Position numbers and translations under genes: made by a program
Notes under the pieces: generated by a model
Database searches by the model: none
What the model saw: the letters and a program-made list of their open reading frames with translations, nothing else
What the model was told of the DNA's origin: nothing
Shown: piece after piece, positions 1,823-45,980 of the stretch
Layout: each line of letters starts with the position of its first letter
Numbering within the stretch: position 1 is the first letter of the stretch
DNA from: Microthyrium microscopicum
Taxonomy: Eukaryota
DNA length: 64,000 nt
Assembly: GCA_010405405.1 (NCBI GenBank)
Contig: MU004230.1
Location: 2,886,627 to 2,950,626 of the forward strand
Direction of reading: 5' to 3'

Positions 1823-3226
1823 GAACAACAATTCTTTCAAATCAAATTGAGATAGAACTCTCTTCCGAATCCAGTTTCGGTTCGCTTTCCTTTCGATCGA
1901 CTCTGACGACCGGCGGCACATCTCCGGACCTGGAATACCACCCCCATCCTCCTCGTCGAATCCTCAATAACAAAAAGTGCAAATAATTCAAGTAGGTACA
2001 TCCCTCTGGCTCTGGACTACTGGAGTCCACAACTTCACAAGGTGGGCGATGATGATAGATTATCGCCTGCAGCGCGCGCGCATCCAATGCGGCTTTGATT
2101 AAAGACCACTGCGAGTTAGTAGCTCAAGGTGGCGACACTCGTAGCTTAGGATGCAATGGTTATCCGCGACTGGTCAGGTAAAGGGCGCAGTGATGGGTAG
2201 TGGCCCTGAGAGCGACATGCTTGGTTTTACCACCACGATGGTGGTAGTCTGAGCCCATTTTGTTATCCATATTTGATTTCATGTTTGGTTGTAAGCATCA
2301 TGAGCTAACAGTTCTATTTATACCAGATATAAAGCGCCAGAAAAAACAATAGGAAGCGGCTCCGACATCTTCGTCGTCAGAATAAAGGTCAGTGTCACCA
2401 CCGATACATTGCATTGACAAGTACTTGTCGGTCCAAGCTAACGGGTAGGCTAGGTTATTTGCTGAGACCAAAGAAGGGGACCGGAGCCTCTTCAATGTTG
2501 CCTATGATTCTAGTTTCAAGAACTGAATGTCGTGTGGTCTCACTACAGCTTCGTTGTCGAGAATACAGCCAAAGCTCCAAACAAATCCACCGTCTCAGCA
2601 CAGCTTCAAGTTTCGATTTTACCAGGTATTGCACTGGTAATCATTCATAAGGGTCATAAGCTTACCAGTTTATTCAGAGCATTACCTTACCGACGTCGAA
2701 TGCTATCATGACATTGCCGCTGAATCCTTTATTATCATTCGGTCCATTCCTGCCTCCTGAGTCACTACTCCAGCAACGAGCACCACATGGTGTTTGAACT
2801 TTACTTAAGGGTTCCTTCAAAAACAGCAAGCGCATCAAGTCTATCCACGCTTTTCGGATTGGTTGGGTTACACTTCAAGAGTCGTGGAGACATGATAGTC
2901 TCTGATACCCAACTTTCAGCATTTTGACAGTTTAGCCCCTTTTCACGAAATCATGTCAACAAATCAGTTGATAGTCCGCCACGGCGAGAATTGAAAGTTC
3001 GAACACCGATATATCTGGAGGAGAAGTCCTCGCAATGCGGCTACAGCATAGTAGCTACAGGATGACCTACTTCTTCCCTGTTCAAACATAAAATCGTTGA
3101 GAATATTGAAGAGCCAGATGCTAGCAGCTACTCCACGAAGTCGTATTCGCGGCGCGAAACTAAACACAGACAGTTGTCGTGGAAAGGTAAGTCAAAGCTT
3201 CTTTTCCTTTTGACATTCCTTTGCAA

Positions 3227-37218: not shown

Positions 37219-39974
37219 AGTGACTGCTCTTTGGGTATAGCTAGTTGAGCGATGCGTTCGATTGAATGATATCTGCTGCCTGTTAGAACAAACTGCTCAT
37301 ACATCTGGTAATAGGATGCTGGAATGAATGCTTTTGTCGGGAATAGATGCAATACATTTTTCAGGCTTGATAGGTATCCAGGTATAATAGTGTTGATTGA
37401 TGTTATGAATAAGAAAGTCAAAATGTCCAGTCGCTCTCGGTAATCTACCAGAAGACAAATGAAAGATGATAAAGAATTACGCGTCACAACGTACTTGTTC
37501 TCGTGTCAAAGGGGGTAGCCATCGCGGTGAAAGAGGACCGAACATTGGTTCGGAAACGTCAGAGGATCTGTTTTCTTGGGCCGGGAAGCACTCCGGCCGA
37601 GACCAAGGACCGGGCCGGAAGGGATAGTTAGTATCAAAGGTAGTAACGATGGCACTAGGGTAAATCTAGGGCCAGTGAGGCTGAAGTCTTGTGTCGTAAA
37701 TTGGCAAGAAAGATGCTCAAGTTCGAATATAATGAGTCCAAGAAGTAAATACCAGGCAGAAGCACGACAAGTTGGCAGTGATGGTTTCGAGAGTAATATA
37801 TGTCCATGATCATGATCGCACATATCTGCAACTAGTGGATTTACGGGATAAACGTATCAATACCCAATGATCTGACACGATGCAAGCCATAGTCTGCGCT
37901 AGTTATAGTATGATGTCCGTACGGCAAATCCCTTGACCCAAAGTAGGCAACCAGCTACCTGAGAAAGATTGGGAGTATTCAATCAGACCAAGAAACACGA
38001 TTGGACTGACGGAGTGGGGAAGAGTGCAATAGCTCGTCTCAATGCGGATATGGGAAGACTCGATCTCGGTTACCCTGCAGGCATGGTGGTGTATCGATCC
38101 ATGGATGAAGCCTGAAGCATCGGTATAGAGCGTGCTTCTGGCTAGCGCCCAAAGTGTCGGGACAATGATTTTTTTCTTCATCTCATACTAAGACCATGTA
38201 GAACGAGTACAGGCCTTTGTAAAAGTCAAATATATTAGTTCTTGAATTGGTCAGCGAGTACGAGCTTGTTACTCAAACATTCGCAAGCTGTACTATGCGC
38301 AGATATCGTTCGTTAGTTGCTAGTCCTTTGAGTGTAGTAGGTTAGGTTATAGGAACGCGGCTATATGCATATATCCCTGGAGAATATCAAGCATGATGTT
38401 CAGCTGCATACTGATACAAATAATACCCGGATAGTCGATAGGGACAAGCGCACGAGATTACCGGAATCACAGGCTGGATGTCTCAGCTCACCGAAGACTA
38501 CACCTTTCATTCGATGTTTGTGGGCAAAATTGCAGACGAAAGTATGTCGATATCGTATCCAAAGAGGCTTGTACTAAGCTAGCTTCGAAGAGATTGGAGA
38601 AACCAACAAATCAGGCGGAACGATATTGAAGGATGATTATTTCCAAGGTGCTTGTGTGGATGAAGTTGCATATTGAAGATATTATTGCCGGGGTTGGTGG
38701 GATGCAAGCTGCATGCTGCAGGTTTGGCGGTTTCTTGAGTCTAGTTCGCGGCCAGTTAAAGAGCACCCAGAAGTCGTGCATCGCGAAATCGACCCTATTG
38801 ATTTTTGTCTTTTCCGCTCACCTCATGCTTTGTATCCGATGGAGAAGAGAGGCCGCAAGTAGTCCTCATACGATCAATCGATTGCCAAGTATTGCCAGAT
38901 ACGATACACAGATCCATCGAGGTTCCATTTAAGGCTCATAGATGAAAGTTCTCCACGACCGGGTTTTGGGTAGAAGTTCAATATCGGCCTATAGCAGCAT
39001 CAGGTCCGAGCAGGTTCAGGAACAAGTTCAATTCGTTGCTCAAGCGATTGAAAGATGCCTATCCAGGACATAGTAGCCGGCATATAGGTAGACAAACAGC
39101 TTGTCTCACTTACTCGCATTAAGCCACGAGGGCAAAGAAGCAGAATCAAGCTGCCAGCTCATCGACCATGCCATGAGAGATTTCTTAAAAGTAAGGCTTG
39201 ATGATTTTGACGAGCTGTCCTCATAGTAACCTTGGATCCAAAACGCTGATATCTCTAGCTGGAGGAAGATATTTCAAATGAAGCCATGAACTCGAGAACA
39301 TAGGATATGAGACATTCGCATCAAAGGTGTGGATACACGAATAAGCGAAGTTGGAAGAGGAACGAGAATACGATGCATAGGAGCTGAACGTGCAGCTTGC
39401 TGCACTTTCGAACGCCCACGATCTATAGGCTAGGTACGTGCATTTTCAAGGATCTCAAGATCTTGTTAGACCTTTCGCAGTATGCAGCCCTTGAGGTTAG
39501 TCCGAAGATAGTTGCACAAAGTTGGAGAGGAAGTTAGAGAGACGAAAGGGAGGTGAATATTCTTGGCTGCTTTTTGATAAGCTACAAAACTGAAATGGTC
39601 TTGGCACTAGCGAGTGGGATACCGTTTTTACCCTTTCAGTTGGGCCACGGTAGCGCGGTTTTTTAGGCGAGGTTTGTCCGTGAGCGATAGCGAGTCACTG
39701 CCTAAGTTCAAGGCGCCACCAGCAAGAAAAAGCGCGCTACCGTGGCCCAACTGAAAGGGTAAAAACGGTATTTTGATTGGTGTATAGACAGCTTGTCCAA
39801 TCACATGACTCGTATTTAAACCGCGACGTTTATCAGTCATCCTATATCGACAACATCTGAACCAGCTCGAAGATTCCATCCTCTGCTCAACTCTCAACTT
39901 CATCCTATCTAAGACGATTGACCATTATCACTTCTCCATCATAGTGAATTCATCACACACGACCTACCAGAAAG

Positions 39975-40799
39975 ATGGCGATTGTTTCGCAAAATCAGGT
40001 CCAAGCCGCAGCAGTTGATCAGATACTTCATCCATCCACCAGCCAAACACCACAATACGACTTTAACTTTTCTAATTTCTTAAAACGAGAATATCGATAC
40101 GGCATAGACATCGACCGCCCAATATGTAAAGCATTTGTTCAAGGCCACTGCCCAGCCGGGTCAAGTTGTCCAGACCGTCATCCAGCGCAAACCGGCTTTA
40201 ATAGGTATGTCAAACCACATCACATGGCTTTGGAGATCACACTAACCAGTTACCCCGGCAGTTTAGTATGTAAGCATTGGATGCGTGCGCTATGCAAGAA
40301 AGGTGAAGGCTGCGAATTCTTGCATGAATACAATCTACGTCGGATGCCTGAATGTCACAGCTACGCAGATGATAGCAAATGCCCCAACGGCGACGACTGC
40401 ATGTATCAACATATCGACAAGTCACGTAAGCGACCTCCATGTCCTCACTATGATCGCGGGTTCTGTCCCCTAGGGCCACTATGTGCGAATAAGCACGTCA
40501 AGAAAGCCAAGCTATGTCAGCTTTATCTTGCAGGCTTCTGCCCCAATGGCCGAGAATGCCAGCTTGGCGCACATGCAAGATTTGCTTTCGATCTTAAAAA
40601 GCCGGTGGTCAAGGGCCAAGAGCCGCCCGAGGAAGCAAAGGCAGAGACACATGCAGACCAAGAGCAGAAATATGACGATGATGGACGGTTCAGCAAGGAT
40701 GACCGACAATTTGGTGGTGGACAGCAAAAGTTTGGACGAGGCGGATGGCAAGGGAAGAAGCGAGGACGGGGAGGCTTCAAGCCTAGAGGACGTGGATAG
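39975..40799 (+). CDS. YTH1: mRNA 3'-end processing CCCH zinc-finger protein (CPSF30)
   Basis: Five CCCH fingers (VCKHWMRALCKKGEGCEFLHEYNLRRMPEC). In-frame 57-nt intron at 40205-40261. Confidence 0.95.
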   Translation: MAIVSQNQVQAAAVDQILHPSTSQTPQYDFNFSNFLKREYRYGIDIDRPICKAFVQGHCPAGSSCPDRHPAQTGFNRYVKPHHMALEITLTSYPGSLVCKHWMRALCKKGEGCEFLHEYNLRRMPECHSYADDSKCPNGDDCMYQHIDKSRKRPPCPHYDRGFCPLGPLCANKHVKKAKLCQLYLAGFCPNGRECQLGAHARFAFDLKKPVVKGQEPPEEAKAETHADQEQKYDDDGRFSKDDRQFGGGQQKFGRGGWQGKKRGRGGFKPRGRG

Positions 40800-41499
40800 T
40801 CTCCCGATCACCACCAGCGATTCGGACGCATGCAGCCACGGCCTAGCGAACTTCTGAAGTTTAGAAGGAGATATGCGGAAGAATAATAGCATTGTCTAAT
40901 AGTCGAGTCAGTCGAAGATGTCTCAAAACTCAAGGTTGAGATTGGACCGCATGGAAGAAGTATTGATACGATAACTCGCCGTGCAATTTCGGCAGCAACC
41001 ACAAAGACAAACCACGACTGAATCTAGTATTATAGAGCTGCTTTACGAGTCCGAAGGTCAAGTATGTACGATATTGTTACGAGTATTGCGCAGAAATGTG
41101 ACTAGGCTGTTGGTTCTGATGAAGAGGAGAATTGAGAGACGATGTCCACCAGAGATACCAACGATCTTCAGGCCTAACAAACCAGCCAAAATAACAGATT
41201 ATGTCTTAAATTTTCCATTGTCTTTTGAGTATCTCATGAATTACCGTGTCTTTGAAAAGAAAACTGATGAGGCGGTGACCCCGCTCTGGTGCTGGTGCTG
41301 GCTGGCCCACTCTGTTGCTTGCCTGGTTCTGGTGGGCGGCGCGTCTCTGCGCAAAAGGGGGGCGTCAACCATCCTTCTCTTTTTCTCTCCACCGCGTCTT
41401 TGCACCAATTCCATCGCATCAACAGATCCCCATCAATGCGACCGAGTGGTGTTGTCAACTAGTTTGTAGATCTGCTAGTCCGCACCTCCCAAACAAAAC

Positions 41500-43274
41500 A
41501 TGCAACCAAACGTCGGCGCCCGGAACTTTCCGCACCCAGCGCGCAACAAGACTGGTTAGTAGTACCTCTCCAACTACACCTCTACACACACCTGATCCTT
41601 TGCTCCAATATTCCATTTCCCACCACTCTTCCTCCTACATCCCATTATTCACGTGTATTCTCTCTTTCTCTCTGTACCGAAGTTGCTCTATACTTGCGCT
41701 CCTACCCGTTGCCCGGCATGGCTACCCGCCACACGAGAAACAAGACTTCTCTTGGCAGCATTACATATGCCGATCTTGCTAACACTTTCCAACGTCCAGG
41801 CCTTCCTCCAGTTGGCGCGCAATATCAGTTAGGCCAGCCCGTCGCACCGCAACGAGTTTCTCAGGATGAATCTGCACGCGCCGCCATCTACAAACGGCTG
41901 TCCATAGTCCCTACCGATCGCGAAATTCCAGATGGCGTAGCAGATCTAGTGGTCGGCGATGTGGTAGAGCGGTATCAGTCACTGCGCGAGCTCGAGAAAA
42001 AACTAGATGCCGTCCTGATCAACAAGCGTCTGGCTGCTAAGGACTCGAGTCAGCGATACGAGCGCCGTTTGCGTACTATGCGCGTGTGGATCAGCTGTCA
42101 GTCTTTGGATAAAGATAACGGCGACACGCGTATGGAGGACACATTCGACTTTGGCGATGAGTCCGGCGATCGCAGCTACAAGATGCAAATTCAAGGTCGT
42201 TTGCTACCTGAAGACGACGAGGAAGCCGAGTCCAAGGACAAGTCCGATGACACAAGCGGCATGGATGTCGACAAACCCTCGGAAGAAGCAGCAAAGAAAG
42301 AGGGCTCATCAAAACCATACTTTGAGAGACAAAAGTTTTCTCATTATTTCCAAACTATCACCGTCACCTTCAATCCGCCTCAACACGCTCTTCCCAACGC
42401 CACAGTTCCTGCTCCAATACAATGGAAACGACCAACTCCTACCCAAGAAGGCCAATTTCCAACTAGCCCCAACGCAAATTTCGATTGCTTAGATATCGAG
42501 CGCAAACTCGAGGAAGGTGTCCAGAGCGTGACTGTAAAATTGGAGCGTGCGGATCCAAATGGCCGGGTCCGAGGAAAGCTAAGTCCCGCACTTGCTCGAG
42601 TTCTCGATCGACAATATGAGGACCAGAGTGGTGCCATGATGGGCATTTACAATTATGTCCGTCTAAAGGGACTAGAACAGGAAGGCCAACCACAATACTT
42701 CAGATGCGACGAGGCTCTAAAAGCTGTAAGTATTGTAATACATTACCTGAAACATCTCTAACATAATTAGGTCTTCGGTCAAGACTCGATGCACTTCACA
42801 TACGCCCCTGAAAAAATCATGGAGAACATTACTCCACTTCCAGATATATCTCTCCCATTCACTATCCGTCTATCTAACCCACCCGCGCCACCAACTATCT
42901 ACGACATCCCCGTTCTTGTGGATGATCCTCTCGATGTCTTCACATCCTACTTTCGATCTGCGACCAATCCTCGTGATCAAAACTTTGTCAAACGCCTCGA
43001 GACAATCGCCCAACTCGATAAGGACATTGCCCTTGCTATTCAGGGCATGTATGCGAGCAAAGCCAAAATCGACTTTCTCAACCAGTTGGCCAAGGAACCA
43101 GTTGGCTTCATGAAAAAGTGGGTCAGCTCACAGCAGGCTGACGAGGCAGTCATTCTTGCCGAAGAGAACGCCAAAGGACCCGAGTGGAGTCGTGGCGGTC
43201 AAGAAAGTCTTTGGGCTTCGCAGGGTGCTAAGGAGAGTGTGGGGCTGTTGTTGGCTCGAACGAAGCCTTTGTAG
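41500..43274 (+). CDS. SWI/SNF-RSC complex SWIB-domain subunit (Snf12/Rsc6/Ssr3, BAF60 family)
   Basis: Exons 41500-41554, 41800-42725, 42771-43274. PTDREIPDG, EKKLDA, KFSHYF, KLSPALARVLD, GIYNYVRLKGL, PVGFMKKWVSSQ. Confidence 0.9.
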
Positions 43275-44033
43275 TTCATTGGGGAGCAGCCGGAATCTCT
43301 GGCATCTCTGGGTCAGGTTCCTGGTTTTCCTTCAGTTGTGCCAGATGTTTTGGATGGAGGCTTGGTCGAAAAGTCACCAAGTTCTTCTTCAACCATGGCA
43401 AACATGCCGTATGTTTCGTCCCAAAAAGTCTCCAACCCCCCTTTAGCTAGGGCAGACAGTCCAAACGATGTTTTGATTGTAAACTCCCTCAAACCTCCTT
43501 CAACTATGGCAAACCTTTCGAATGATGATTTGATCGCAAGGATTTCCAAACCCCCTTTAGCTATGGCAAATGTACTGAATGATAATTCGATCGAAATATT
43601 CCCGGAACACTCTTCAACTGTGCCAAATATTCGGAGGCAATCGCCACTTGTTGATCACAATCAGCAAGAGAGGCATAACAAAGTTTCAAATTTTATTCCG
43701 TTCGTAACTTCAAAAGAGGACAAATGCGGTGTCTGCAAAGAAGAGAGAAGGGAATGTCTCATTGAGAAGGATGGCGAAAGATGCAAGCCCTGCCGTTTGA
43801 AAGGACGCAAATGTAGTCTTATTGGGAAGCGAGCGGGGGATATCCGGGTCAAAAGCGAAAAATGCGATGCCTGCAAAAAGGACAGGAGAATCTGTGTCGT
43901 TGTCATGGCTGGCGAGAGATGTGTGTATTGCGAGTCAAGGGGATGCAGATGTACTCTTATTGAAGAGCGAACGCCGAAGGGGAAACTATCGAGAGACAAG
44001 AAGCGCGTCCTCTCAGATGCCCAGAGTGTATAA
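43275..44033 (+). CDS. ORF with two tandem Zn(II)2Cys6-like clusters; in frame with the preceding stop codon (first ATG at 43395)
   Basis: Two C-x2-C-x6-C-x8-C-x2-C-x6-C motifs at 43725-43814 and 43863-43952, preceded by degenerate S/P-rich repeats. Confidence 0.7.
   Translation, partial: FIGEQPESLASLGQVPGFPSVVPDVLDGGLVEKSPSSSSTMANMPYVSSQKVSNPPLARADSPNDVLIVNSLKPPSTMANLSNDDLIARISKPPLAMANVLNDNSIEIFPEHSSTVPNIRRQSPLVDHNQQERHNKVSNFIPFVTSKEDKCGVCKEERRECLIEKDGERCKPCRLKGRKCSLIGKRAGDIRVKSEKCDACKKDRRICVVVMAGERCVYCESRGCRCTLIEERTPKGKLSRDKKRVLSDAQSV
43329..43630 (+). repeat. degenerate coding tandem repeat (about 55-60 bp units, about 111-114 bp higher order)
   Basis: YCTTCARYYRTGSCARA at 43329, 43386, 43497 and 43611. 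CCCCCTTTAGCTA at about 43437 and 43551. Confidence 0.75.
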
Positions 44034-44220: not shown

Positions 44221-45980
44221 CTAAACCCCAATGAAATACAGGCGCGTAGCCTCATCATACTCCAAAACCACCTCCTCTTCCATCTCAACTAAGTCGACAT
44301 CCATTTGCTGCCACACATTCAACACATACGCATCCCTCAAGGCATACTCCGCTGACCGAAACGTAGCACAAACATAACAATTCCCCCCAACATTCGTTTT
44401 TCCGGAGCCGTGCATCTTGCCAAAAGCATCCACTGGACTCATCACCATCAGCAACTTACCCGCCTTTCGAACCACCATACCCGCTCTTACACGCCTTCGC
44501 CATTCAATACCTTGGTTCTCCTGAGCCTTGCTCGAATTCACTACCTCCTCCGCCTTGGCCGCGGCTCCACGCAAGCTGTCCACGTGCATCTTCCACAGCT
44601 TCATGCGTAATGCGACAGCTCGCTCGCGCGCTACGCCTTCCGCTTTGCAGCACCTCTCGTCGAACTCTCCTTCGGCCATGGCGAGGACTTGCGCACCCGT
44701 ATGCCAGGGAGCCACACACTCCACGTCTACGGGCACGGCACTCGCGCTGAGCCAATCCCGCATGTGCTTGTTGTTCCAGGTACGTGGAGCTAACGGATCA
44801 TACACAACCTCGCGCTTCGGCGGGACAGGTACGCGTAGGAGCGAGGCATAGCGGAGCGTATTATGGCTACTTCCCACATCAGGCTGCGCAGGTGCCAAAC
44901 ATGCCACAACGCGTGTTTTTGGCGTACGTGTGGCTAGTGGATCAAAGACGTGCTTCAGCACTTTCGTTAGCGCAGACTGGCGGAAGGGGATATATGGTGC
45001 TCGTCCCGGCTTTCCCTCCTCCGGGGTAAGCAGGGCGCGGCCACGAATACAGGCTTGTAGGACGGACAAGCTGGTATTGATGTCGCGGGCCTCATGCATG
45101 CGTTCTTTCGAGTGCGTGGTGGATGTATCGCGGAGTGCTTCACTGCCTGCGAGATCAACGAGGTATAACAAGCCATCCGGGGCGGCGGGCGTGACAGGGT
45201 CGGTGATGGTGATACGTGTAACCGCATGCGCTCTTGAACTCTGTGCATTTTTCACTGTCTCTGCTGTACTTCTCAGCCGAGCAGCATTGTCCACATGTGC
45301 TAAGAACTCAGATGCCTTCAAGACGCGGGGCTCAGAGCAGCCGACGAGACGTGTTTCGCCGAAAGAATCTTCAAGTAATGCGATGGGTTTTCGATCGGCG
45401 AGTAGATCATAGGCAGCGTTGAGGGTAGTTCCAAGCTCAAAGATAGCGATATGCACATTACGATAGCCACCGTCCTTATCGCGTTGGCCGCAAAGTTGAT
45501 GAGCAAGTAGGTGCTGGAGGGCAGAAATGGTATGTGTTTTGCCACTGCCGGTTTGGCCGTAGGCGAAGAGTGTCGCGATACCGCCTTTGAGGGCGTGGGT
45601 GACGAGAGGAGCGGTGAGGTCCTCGTAGAGTGTTTCTGTGGACTCGGTGGGTCCGTAAATGCGGTCGAGGAAGAAGGCAGAGGACTGGTCTTTGTTAGCT
45701 GATGCTCTTGCGGACTGTTGGAGATACATACGCGAAGCTTGGGCCCACCTGGGAGGCCGAGAGCTAGATTGTGTAGTTCGACAATGTTGTTGGTTCGTGA
45801 ATGGACGCCTGAAGTTTGCCCCTTCTCGGCTTCATGTTCGAGAATTGGACGGATGCGAGCAGTAATGACAGTATCGTCATTGCGTGGGAGGTTGACTTGT
45901 TCTTTATCGACGTTTACTGGCCTGGTTCGAGCCTGTTCGACTAGAAATTGGAAGGTCTCTGTGTGTTCTGCTGGATTCAT
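44221..45980 (-). CDS. atypical kinesin motor protein (kinesin-13-like) with C-terminal accessory domains
   Basis: Exons 45980-45732 and 45684-44221. ARIRP, AYGQTGSGKT, NAQSSRAH, LVDLAGSE, IPFRQSALTKVL, TLRYA. Confidence 0.88.

Follow-up and report, generated by a model that had tools for sequence, protein, structure and literature searches.

A candidate stop-loss editing site at the end of SNF12 in the Dothideomycete Microthyrium microscopicum

Does the SNF12 gene of Microthyrium microscopicum end at its UAG, or can this stop be recoded so that a long open frame behind it, with two zinc-cluster-like motifs, is joined to a core subunit of a chromatin remodeller? The question is raised by a stretch of 64,000 nucleotides from this fungus (assembly GCA_010405405.1, contig MU004230.1, positions 2,886,627 to 2,950,626, forward strand; hereafter the window). 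Adenosine-to-inosine (A-to-I) editing of the UAG, a change of the stop-loss type, is the single likeliest reading of the locus, and we place its chance somewhat short of even. The literature used here includes PMC13684035, PMC13123824, PMC10776026, PMC11087585, PMC4817773, PMC11156358, PMC13431901, PMC6794485, PMC12422049, PMC7306014, PMC6959994 and PMC10041177; a listing in one paper's supplement places the species in the Dothideomycetes.

The SNF12 stop and the open frame behind it

The gene in front of the stop had been called a SWI/SNF subunit, and this assignment was confirmed. Its spliced coding sequence (CDS) encodes 494 aa without an internal stop, the SWIB domain (PF02201) reaches 35.4 bits at a cut-off of 25, and matches in the PDB include SMARCD (E 4.7e-23) and yeast SNF12 (E 2.1e-7), which places the protein in the SNF12/SWP73/Rsc6/SMARCD family. 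Among 14 homologues, 12 of which are gene calls truncated at introns, only two reach the C-terminus, and both end at the same place or within about three residues of it. Judged by this comparison, the TAG, which stands in the context CCT TTG TAG TTC, is an ancestral stop, so that a recoding event here would count as stop-loss rather than premature-stop editing.

Behind the TAG, 252 codons follow without a stop until a TAA is reached, as originally described; in the two remaining frames a stop appears after 56 and 57 codons, respectively. The first in-frame ATG indeed lies 120 nt past the stop, at 43395; two out-of-frame ATGs (43345 and 43354) precede it, and no second in-frame ATG was found between the TAG and the first motif. 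The tail consists, in this order, of 18 unique codons, six tandem repeat units, two cysteine motifs spaced by 138 nt, and a basic terminus (Table 1). Zn2Cys6 clusters follow the spacing Cx2Cx6Cx5-12Cx2Cx6-9C, and the earlier description of a double Zn2Cys6 protein stood as far as this pattern is concerned, since both motifs fit it. However, Pfam gave motif 2 only 13.1 bits, below the Zn_clus (PF00172) gathering cut-off of 21 bits, and motif 1 no match at all. At another place in the genome, a further zinc-cluster motif is weakly similar to motif 2 (E 0.01). A single-sequence AlphaFold model of the tail was unusable, with a predicted local distance difference test (pLDDT) score of 41.6.

Table 1. 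Features of the SNF12 locus and its neighbours, in positions of the window
Feature	Position	Strand	Basis or remark
CCCH zinc-finger gene, upstream neighbour	39948-40799	+	presumably CPSF30/YTH1-like
SNF12/SWP73 exon 1 (ATG 41500)	41500..41554	+	spliced in X5 contig, which begins at 41472; spliced CDS 494 aa
SNF12 intron 1, 245 nt, GT..AG	41555..41799	+	joint in X5 contig
SNF12 exon 2, SWIB domain ~42576-42722	41800..42725	+	PF02201 E 8.9e-9; PDB SMARCD/SNF12
SNF12 intron 2, 45 nt	42726..42770	+	joint in X5 contig
SNF12 exon 3, end ...LLARTKPL	42771..43271	+	C-terminus compared with homologues
TAG stop with A43273 as candidate for editing	43272..43274	+	sequence
40 open codons (18 unique ones, then unit 1 and the beginning of unit 2 of the repeat)	43275..43394	+	codon log-odds 0.284
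Six tandem 19-codon units, ~57 nt each (unit 2 has 18 codons)	43329..43667	+	
First in-frame ATG, context TCAACC ATG GCA; start of public model P0004	43395..43397	+	
132-nt in-frame intron implied by P0004 against the window	43409..43540	+	unspliced in X5 contig
Zn2Cys6-like motif 1, Cx2Cx6Cx8Cx2Cx6C	43725..43814	+	sequence; no Zn_clus match
Zn2Cys6-like motif 2, Cx2Cx6Cx8Cx2Cx6C	43863..43952	+	PF00172 E 0.11, below cut-off
TAA closing the tail	44031..44033	+	
Convergent kinesin gene	44221-45831	-	187-nt gap between tail TAA and kinesin stop

By homology, the tail is apparently an orphan. A comparison with 1.84 billion representative sequences returned two matches, the public model of the tail itself (P0004) and one multi-cluster protein at 38% identity. 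No match was found in PDB or NCBIfam, none in Pfam outside motif 2, and the best ESM Atlas scores (0.78 and 0.86) pointed to no family; a whole-tail paralogue was not found in the genome. When the read-through protein was used as query in a word-based search for homologues, only two SNF12 proteins were retrieved. The profile search, which covered 260 to 933 aa with greater lengths not searched, yielded 15 proteins, the longest of at most 533 aa, most homologues being intron-truncated. The 38%-identical protein (P0005), the only non-self match of the tail, is an unnamed protein of 472 aa in which zinc-cluster-like repeats form an extended series.

Within SNF12 itself, a separate observation concerns intron 1, where positions 41718-41799 of the window hold an in-frame ATG and a RHTRNKTSLGSITYADL-like peptide, both of them conserved in half of the homologues (7 of 14). 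This suggests a conserved alternative N-terminus, which might be reached by intron retention or from an inner start.

Translation of the tail and its starting point

Three observations favour translation from the stop rather than from the ATG. First, the 40 codons in front of the ATG look coding, with a log-odds score of 0.284 compared with means of 0.148 for coding and −0.069 for non-coding sequence. This score mostly reflects amino-acid composition; of 3264 non-coding segments free of stops, 33 scored as high, and so did 8 of 141 post-stop segments, SNF12's own included. Second, the ATG appears to be derived within the array. Repeat unit 1 does lie upstream of it, at 43329, as had been noticed before (z = 6.1 against the profile of units 3-5); a seventh unit overlapping the stop was considered and rejected (z = 0.4). 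Units 1 and 6 carry GTG CCA while units 2-5 carry ATG or AGG followed by GCA, and because units at opposite ends of an array cannot have arisen as a recent pair, the ATG looks younger than the array, an argument from tandem-duplication parsimony with two informative sites. Third, in a run labelled X5, which was guessed to be RNA on the strength of two spliced joints and whose stage is not recorded, one spliced contig continues unbroken from 41472 through the TAG and the tail until it enters the kinesin gene that converges on them. Coverage in this run is broken between SNF12 and the tandem gene upstream of it but not at the junction of SNF12 and tail, although a single contig cannot prove one transcript. 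Taken together, we infer that the tail would be translated in continuation of SNF12.

These observations bear directly on the possibility that the tail is a separate orphan gene, encoding a double zinc-cluster protein from ATG 43395 (212 aa, or 168 aa if spliced) and transcribed either from a start inside the 3' end of SNF12 or on a read-through RNA, where it would be the second cistron. The shared frame and the 40 open codons would then be due to chance plus descent of the repeats. We regard such a gene as rather unlikely, but it has a substantial case, as the public annotation treats the tail as its own gene (P0004, 168 aa) with an accession adjoining that of SNF12, and the ATG context TCAACC ATG G looks favourable in comparison with the fungal consensus. 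Repeat unit 1 would be open by descent with P ~0.72, the frame would agree in one case out of three and the 18 further codons would, by our estimate, be open at ~0.4, so that the geometry has an estimated chance of roughly 1 in 10 given a tightly packed neighbour. A second cistron is conceivable as well, as polycistronic fungal RNAs are reported. However, the apparently derived ATG, the coding-like codons ahead of it and the uninterrupted coverage at the junction all speak against a separate gene, as does the finding that a protein of this kind would have, in the whole search, only itself and one distant multi-cluster protein as matches.

Is the tail under selection at all? From the ATG onwards, its codon score is −0.006 and thus not coding-like, and the repeat copies show no third-position bias, with a non-synonymous divergence (pN) close to the synonymous one (pS). 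The openness of the tail is weak evidence, because chance alone would leave the repeat units free of stops with a probability of 0.19 and the pair of motifs with one of 0.30. The synonymous codon score is about zero. All this would fit a non-adaptive, decaying frame in a long 3' untranslated region (UTR), in which a captured zinc-cluster fragment was expanded in tandem before selection was lost. What makes such decay improbable in our view is the retention of the 12 cysteines: all six are present in both motif copies though 38 of 117 nt differ, for which a neutral simulation gave P = 0.003, a value to be read with caution since the locus was chosen for this very motif. In addition, the sole indel in the array measures 3 nt, and each of the two repeat periods is divisible by three. 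We read the tail as a linker that is probably translated and under loose constraint, except for its cysteines, which are constrained.

For a wider comparison, a sample of 864 kb was assembled from 80 ten-kb stretches (78 evenly spaced and two around a pair of DUF726 genes) and the window. Among its 51 TAG ends, which like all ends in the sample are noisy, SNF12 is the only one with a tail of at least 200 codons, and the tail is thus more than expected by chance. The remaining long-tail TAG candidates turned out to be one intron, one wrong frame and, judged by translation, shadow frames. In length, the tails that follow TAG did not exceed those after TAA or TGA (51, 44 and 46 noisy ends, p = 0.86), which rules out a genome-wide reassignment of TAG and counts against editing, yet this comparison is powerless against an editing rate near 1%. 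The GC content after the SNF12 stop (0.50, equalled by 21 of 94 controls) and a crude scan for poly(A) motifs (a match 296 nt past the stop; none within 750 nt in 38 of 94 controls) were uninformative. Elsewhere in the genome, an orphan open reading frame is broken by a TAA at L083:5250-5252 (G000:C5 near 1405250) with 243 open codons behind it, perhaps an intron or a pseudogene.

The stop might also be passed without editing. Where the original prediction had seen no branch site that would let splicing skip it, a weak route does exist on paper, with a donor GTAGTT at 43271, a branch site TTGAT and an AG at 43539-43540 (270 nt). From this donor or from others further upstream, splicing to acceptor 43540 would fuse Snf12 to the last repeats and the motifs; three in-frame introns (270, 423 and 492 nt) share this acceptor, which is also used by the public model. 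A G at position +5 is important for intron donors, however, and the donor at 43271 lacks it; furthermore, the branch site is weak, the joint is absent from the X5 contig and the coding-like stretch before the ATG would be left unexplained, so that we consider this route very improbable. Ribosomal readthrough of the UAG, aided by a stem-loop that begins 3 nt past the stop, would account for the coding-like stretch without editing, and a long hairpin can be drawn at approximately 43278-43335. This hairpin is not unusual, though (z = −1.53, with 14 of 200 shuffles as stable), and no general leakiness of TAG was apparent in the 864-kb sample. A CAR-type 3' context marks leaky UAG codons, and the sequence TAG TTC ATT does not contain this motif, in agreement with the earlier view that the context is not the classical yeast readthrough motif. 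To readthrough we assign the lowest probability of all readings considered.

A43273 as an editing target and signs of editing in the species

Under stop-loss editing, SNF12 would end at its ancestral UAG in most cells and yield the 494-aa subunit, with the tail remaining untranslated in an extended 3' UTR. An activity of the Tad2-Tad3-Ame1 type would deaminate A43273 in sexual tissue, and the UAG would be read as Trp. Part of the protein would gain 253 residues (747 aa in total), comprising a linker of fast-evolving, low-complexity repeats, the two zinc-cluster-like motifs and the basic end. Such a tail might tether SWI/SNF or RSC to DNA in the manner of yeast Rsc3/Rsc30, if the two motifs bind zinc and DNA and thereby target the remodeller, or it might lower the dosage of the subunit, as other edited tails do.

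The proposal of the original prediction that A43273 is recoded by A-to-I editing is partly supported and survives as the likeliest reading, with genomic hints that the species edits, while the site itself is a poor one. In Fusarium, 62.4% of sites lie in hairpin loops and purines are preferred at +3; the preferred context overall (U at −1, purines at +1 and +3, hairpin loop) is described as a tendency and not a rule. A43273 is predicted to be unpaired (0.76-0.99) but lies outside a hairpin loop in all three windows folded; G at −2 and U at +3 are non-preferred, and U at −1 and the purine at +1 are given by the UAG. Moreover, position 43273 reads A in every contig that covers it, X5 included, although contigs drop rare variants. 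Two metagenome scans revealed no related locus, and the contigs of run X6 do not extend over the stop, leaving no relative for comparison. Taken as a group, these points weigh against editing, as do the codon score behind the ATG, the substitution pattern of the repeats and the tail lengths given above. It is because of the poor context, the unedited contig, the annotation as a separate gene and the missing relative that we set the chance below even, and it is raised by two features elsewhere in the genome, namely a premature TAG in an AMA1-like gene and an Ame1-like LV.

Whether the species edits at all is a question on its own. In the literature, mRNA editing is placed in Sordariomycetes and, independently, in Pyronema, and a review from 2020 names pseudothecial species as untested; our literature searches found no report of A-to-I editing in a Dothideomycete, which counts against editing here. 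FgAMA1 is a known target of premature-stop editing, and its stop is reported to have arisen six times in Sordariomycetes, for which reason the AMA1-like anaphase-promoting complex/cyclosome (APC/C) activator was examined. It carries an in-frame TAG (L113:1027-1029 = G000:C7:1977912-1977914, + strand) in the preferred context ATA TAG AAT, within a hairpin loop in two of three windows, with the C-box upstream and the WD40 domain and IR tail downstream. The TAG is spanned only by weak intron candidates of 483-489 nt. Its residue is presumably Trp in other fungi. This is the best single site for judging editing in the species, although the TAG could be a plain loss-of-function allele and need not correspond to the Fusarium site. 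Neither the genus nor the class is named in the text or the table supplement of PMC10776026, whose Fig. 4 might mark an AMA1 stop in a Dothideomycete. Six WD40 matches with an inner TAG were discarded, as the TAG belonged to an intron acceptor in L111, L122 and L123 and was the terminal stop in L121, and L115 and L120 showed no long in-frame TAG pair.

The AMA1-like gene is the only one with a premature or TAG signal among five genes chosen as edited in Fusarium. The parts read of the RID-like and SPO11 genes contain no premature TAG, DBF2 ends with TAA and MOB1 with TGA, all of which diminishes the case for editing. A premature-stop scan of the 864-kb sample came back blank, but it was weak, having missed both positive controls (the AMA1-like gene and SNF12). 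Four pre-selected loci resemble SNF12 to some degree. RPC5 (L071:2093-2701) has a TAG followed by 202 open codons with a score of 0.25 and, like the SNF12 tail, internal repeats and a basic end; HIR1 (L072 ~2519-3034) has two stops followed by 29 and then 141 open codons, with ~90 coding-like codons without an ATG behind the second TAG. One of two RSC7-family genes (RSC7, L069:2962-3267) ends in TAG and continues for 101 open codons with a C2H2-like finger, which would make it another remodeller subunit, after SNF12, followed by a zinc tail; CWC21 continues for 65. The TAGs of all four genes have A at +3, compared with 12 of 31 control TAG ends, and the stops of RPC5 and CWC21 and the first one of HIR1 lie in a hairpin loop in all three windows, compared with 10-17 of 36 controls.

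The second hint comes from the DUF726 family, to which Ame1 belongs. Three such genes were found, one on C7 (L004, G000:C7:54677-58714, − strand) and two less than 5 kb apart (L005 and L006, G000:C1:945825-954298). The C7 copy reads G-L-V before RADKAG, and another copy has RT at the matching place. According to a primer in the Ame1 paper, FgAme1 reads G-M-V-RAEKAG here, and MV500-501 are needed for Tad3 binding in Fusarium. The pattern was matched in 99 of 120 homologues, with K first in 74, LV in two (the query included) and KN in none. The five closest homologues of the C7 copy had MA in four cases and no match in one. Residues vary at this site, 16 of the 99 starting with M or L, and two orthologues are common in the class; since both points lessen its weight, we treat the LV as a lead. 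On balance, it is our judgement that M. microscopicum probably edits mRNA.

Comparison with known editing and remodelling systems

If editing at SNF12 holds, the mechanism is known, and lineage and cargo would be new. Editing outside Sordariomycetes and Pezizomycetes is a question raised by the editing papers themselves. An edited SNF12 would mean that stop-loss editing adds a folded module of the DNA-binding type to a core chromatin remodeller, and it would bear on the dispute over adaptive stop-loss editing; a recent letter holds such editing to be mostly non-adaptive. An unedited SNF12 would leave an orphan gene packed unusually close behind it, a matter of modest interest. Going further, one may picture a sexual-stage editing of its own in a Dothideomycete, a further origin beside Sordariomycetes and Pyronema, with zinc-binding tails grafted on core subunits, two zinc clusters in the case of Snf12 and a C2H2-like finger in that of Rsc7. 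The premature AMA1 TAG and a Fusarium-like Ame1 surface would then be markers of editing, and SWI/SNF or RSC would become self-targeting at a particular stage, copying yeast Rsc3/Rsc30 without new genes. This broad scenario is speculative, and we think it unlikely.

Stop-loss editing is reported for DBF2 and 403 genes in Fusarium graminearum, and for white collar 1 of Sordaria macrospora, where a domain-bearing extension of 131 aa, the nearest precedent for the SNF12 tail, is backed by peptides. In Fusarium, all six tails that had been put to the test destabilised GFP. SNF12 resembles these systems in that its UAG marks a conserved C-terminus and the in-frame tail behind it is of low complexity and little conserved. 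It differs from the stop-loss sites of Sordariomycetes by belonging to another class, by its non-hairpin site, by its longer tail and by the two zinc-cluster-like motifs; a search of two Fusarium stop-loss tables, by annotation words only, did not find the subunit. The premature-stop editing of FgAMA1/PSC33 has its parallel in the TAG of the AMA1-like gene, situated in the preferred context in the interval between C-box and WD40 domain, and not in SNF12. Qi et al. describe that individual species from other classes carry premature stops at sites of this kind, without settling whether these are edited.

On the side of the cargo, the tail shares the six-cysteine spacing of Zn2Cys6 domains (PF00172) twice, together with basic residues between the second and third cysteine, but its clusters score below the cut-off, are C-terminal and stand in tandem. 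Xyr1 is a zinc-cluster protein as well. In Trichoderma, Xyr1 is reported to recruit SWI/SNF through Snf12, and a conditional tail would build targeting of this sort into the subunit. A functional parallel would be Rsc3/Rsc30 of yeast, which are reported to bind CGCG at promoters and to be sub-stoichiometric, being absent from 75% of the particles in one structure; no sequence match between them and the tail was found. Rsc3/Rsc30 place two zinc clusters on a remodeller of the SWI/SNF family, as is proposed here for the SNF12 tail. However, they are separate large subunits with N-terminal clusters, whereas the clusters of SNF12 would be fused, conditionally, to the homologue of Rsc6/Swp73.

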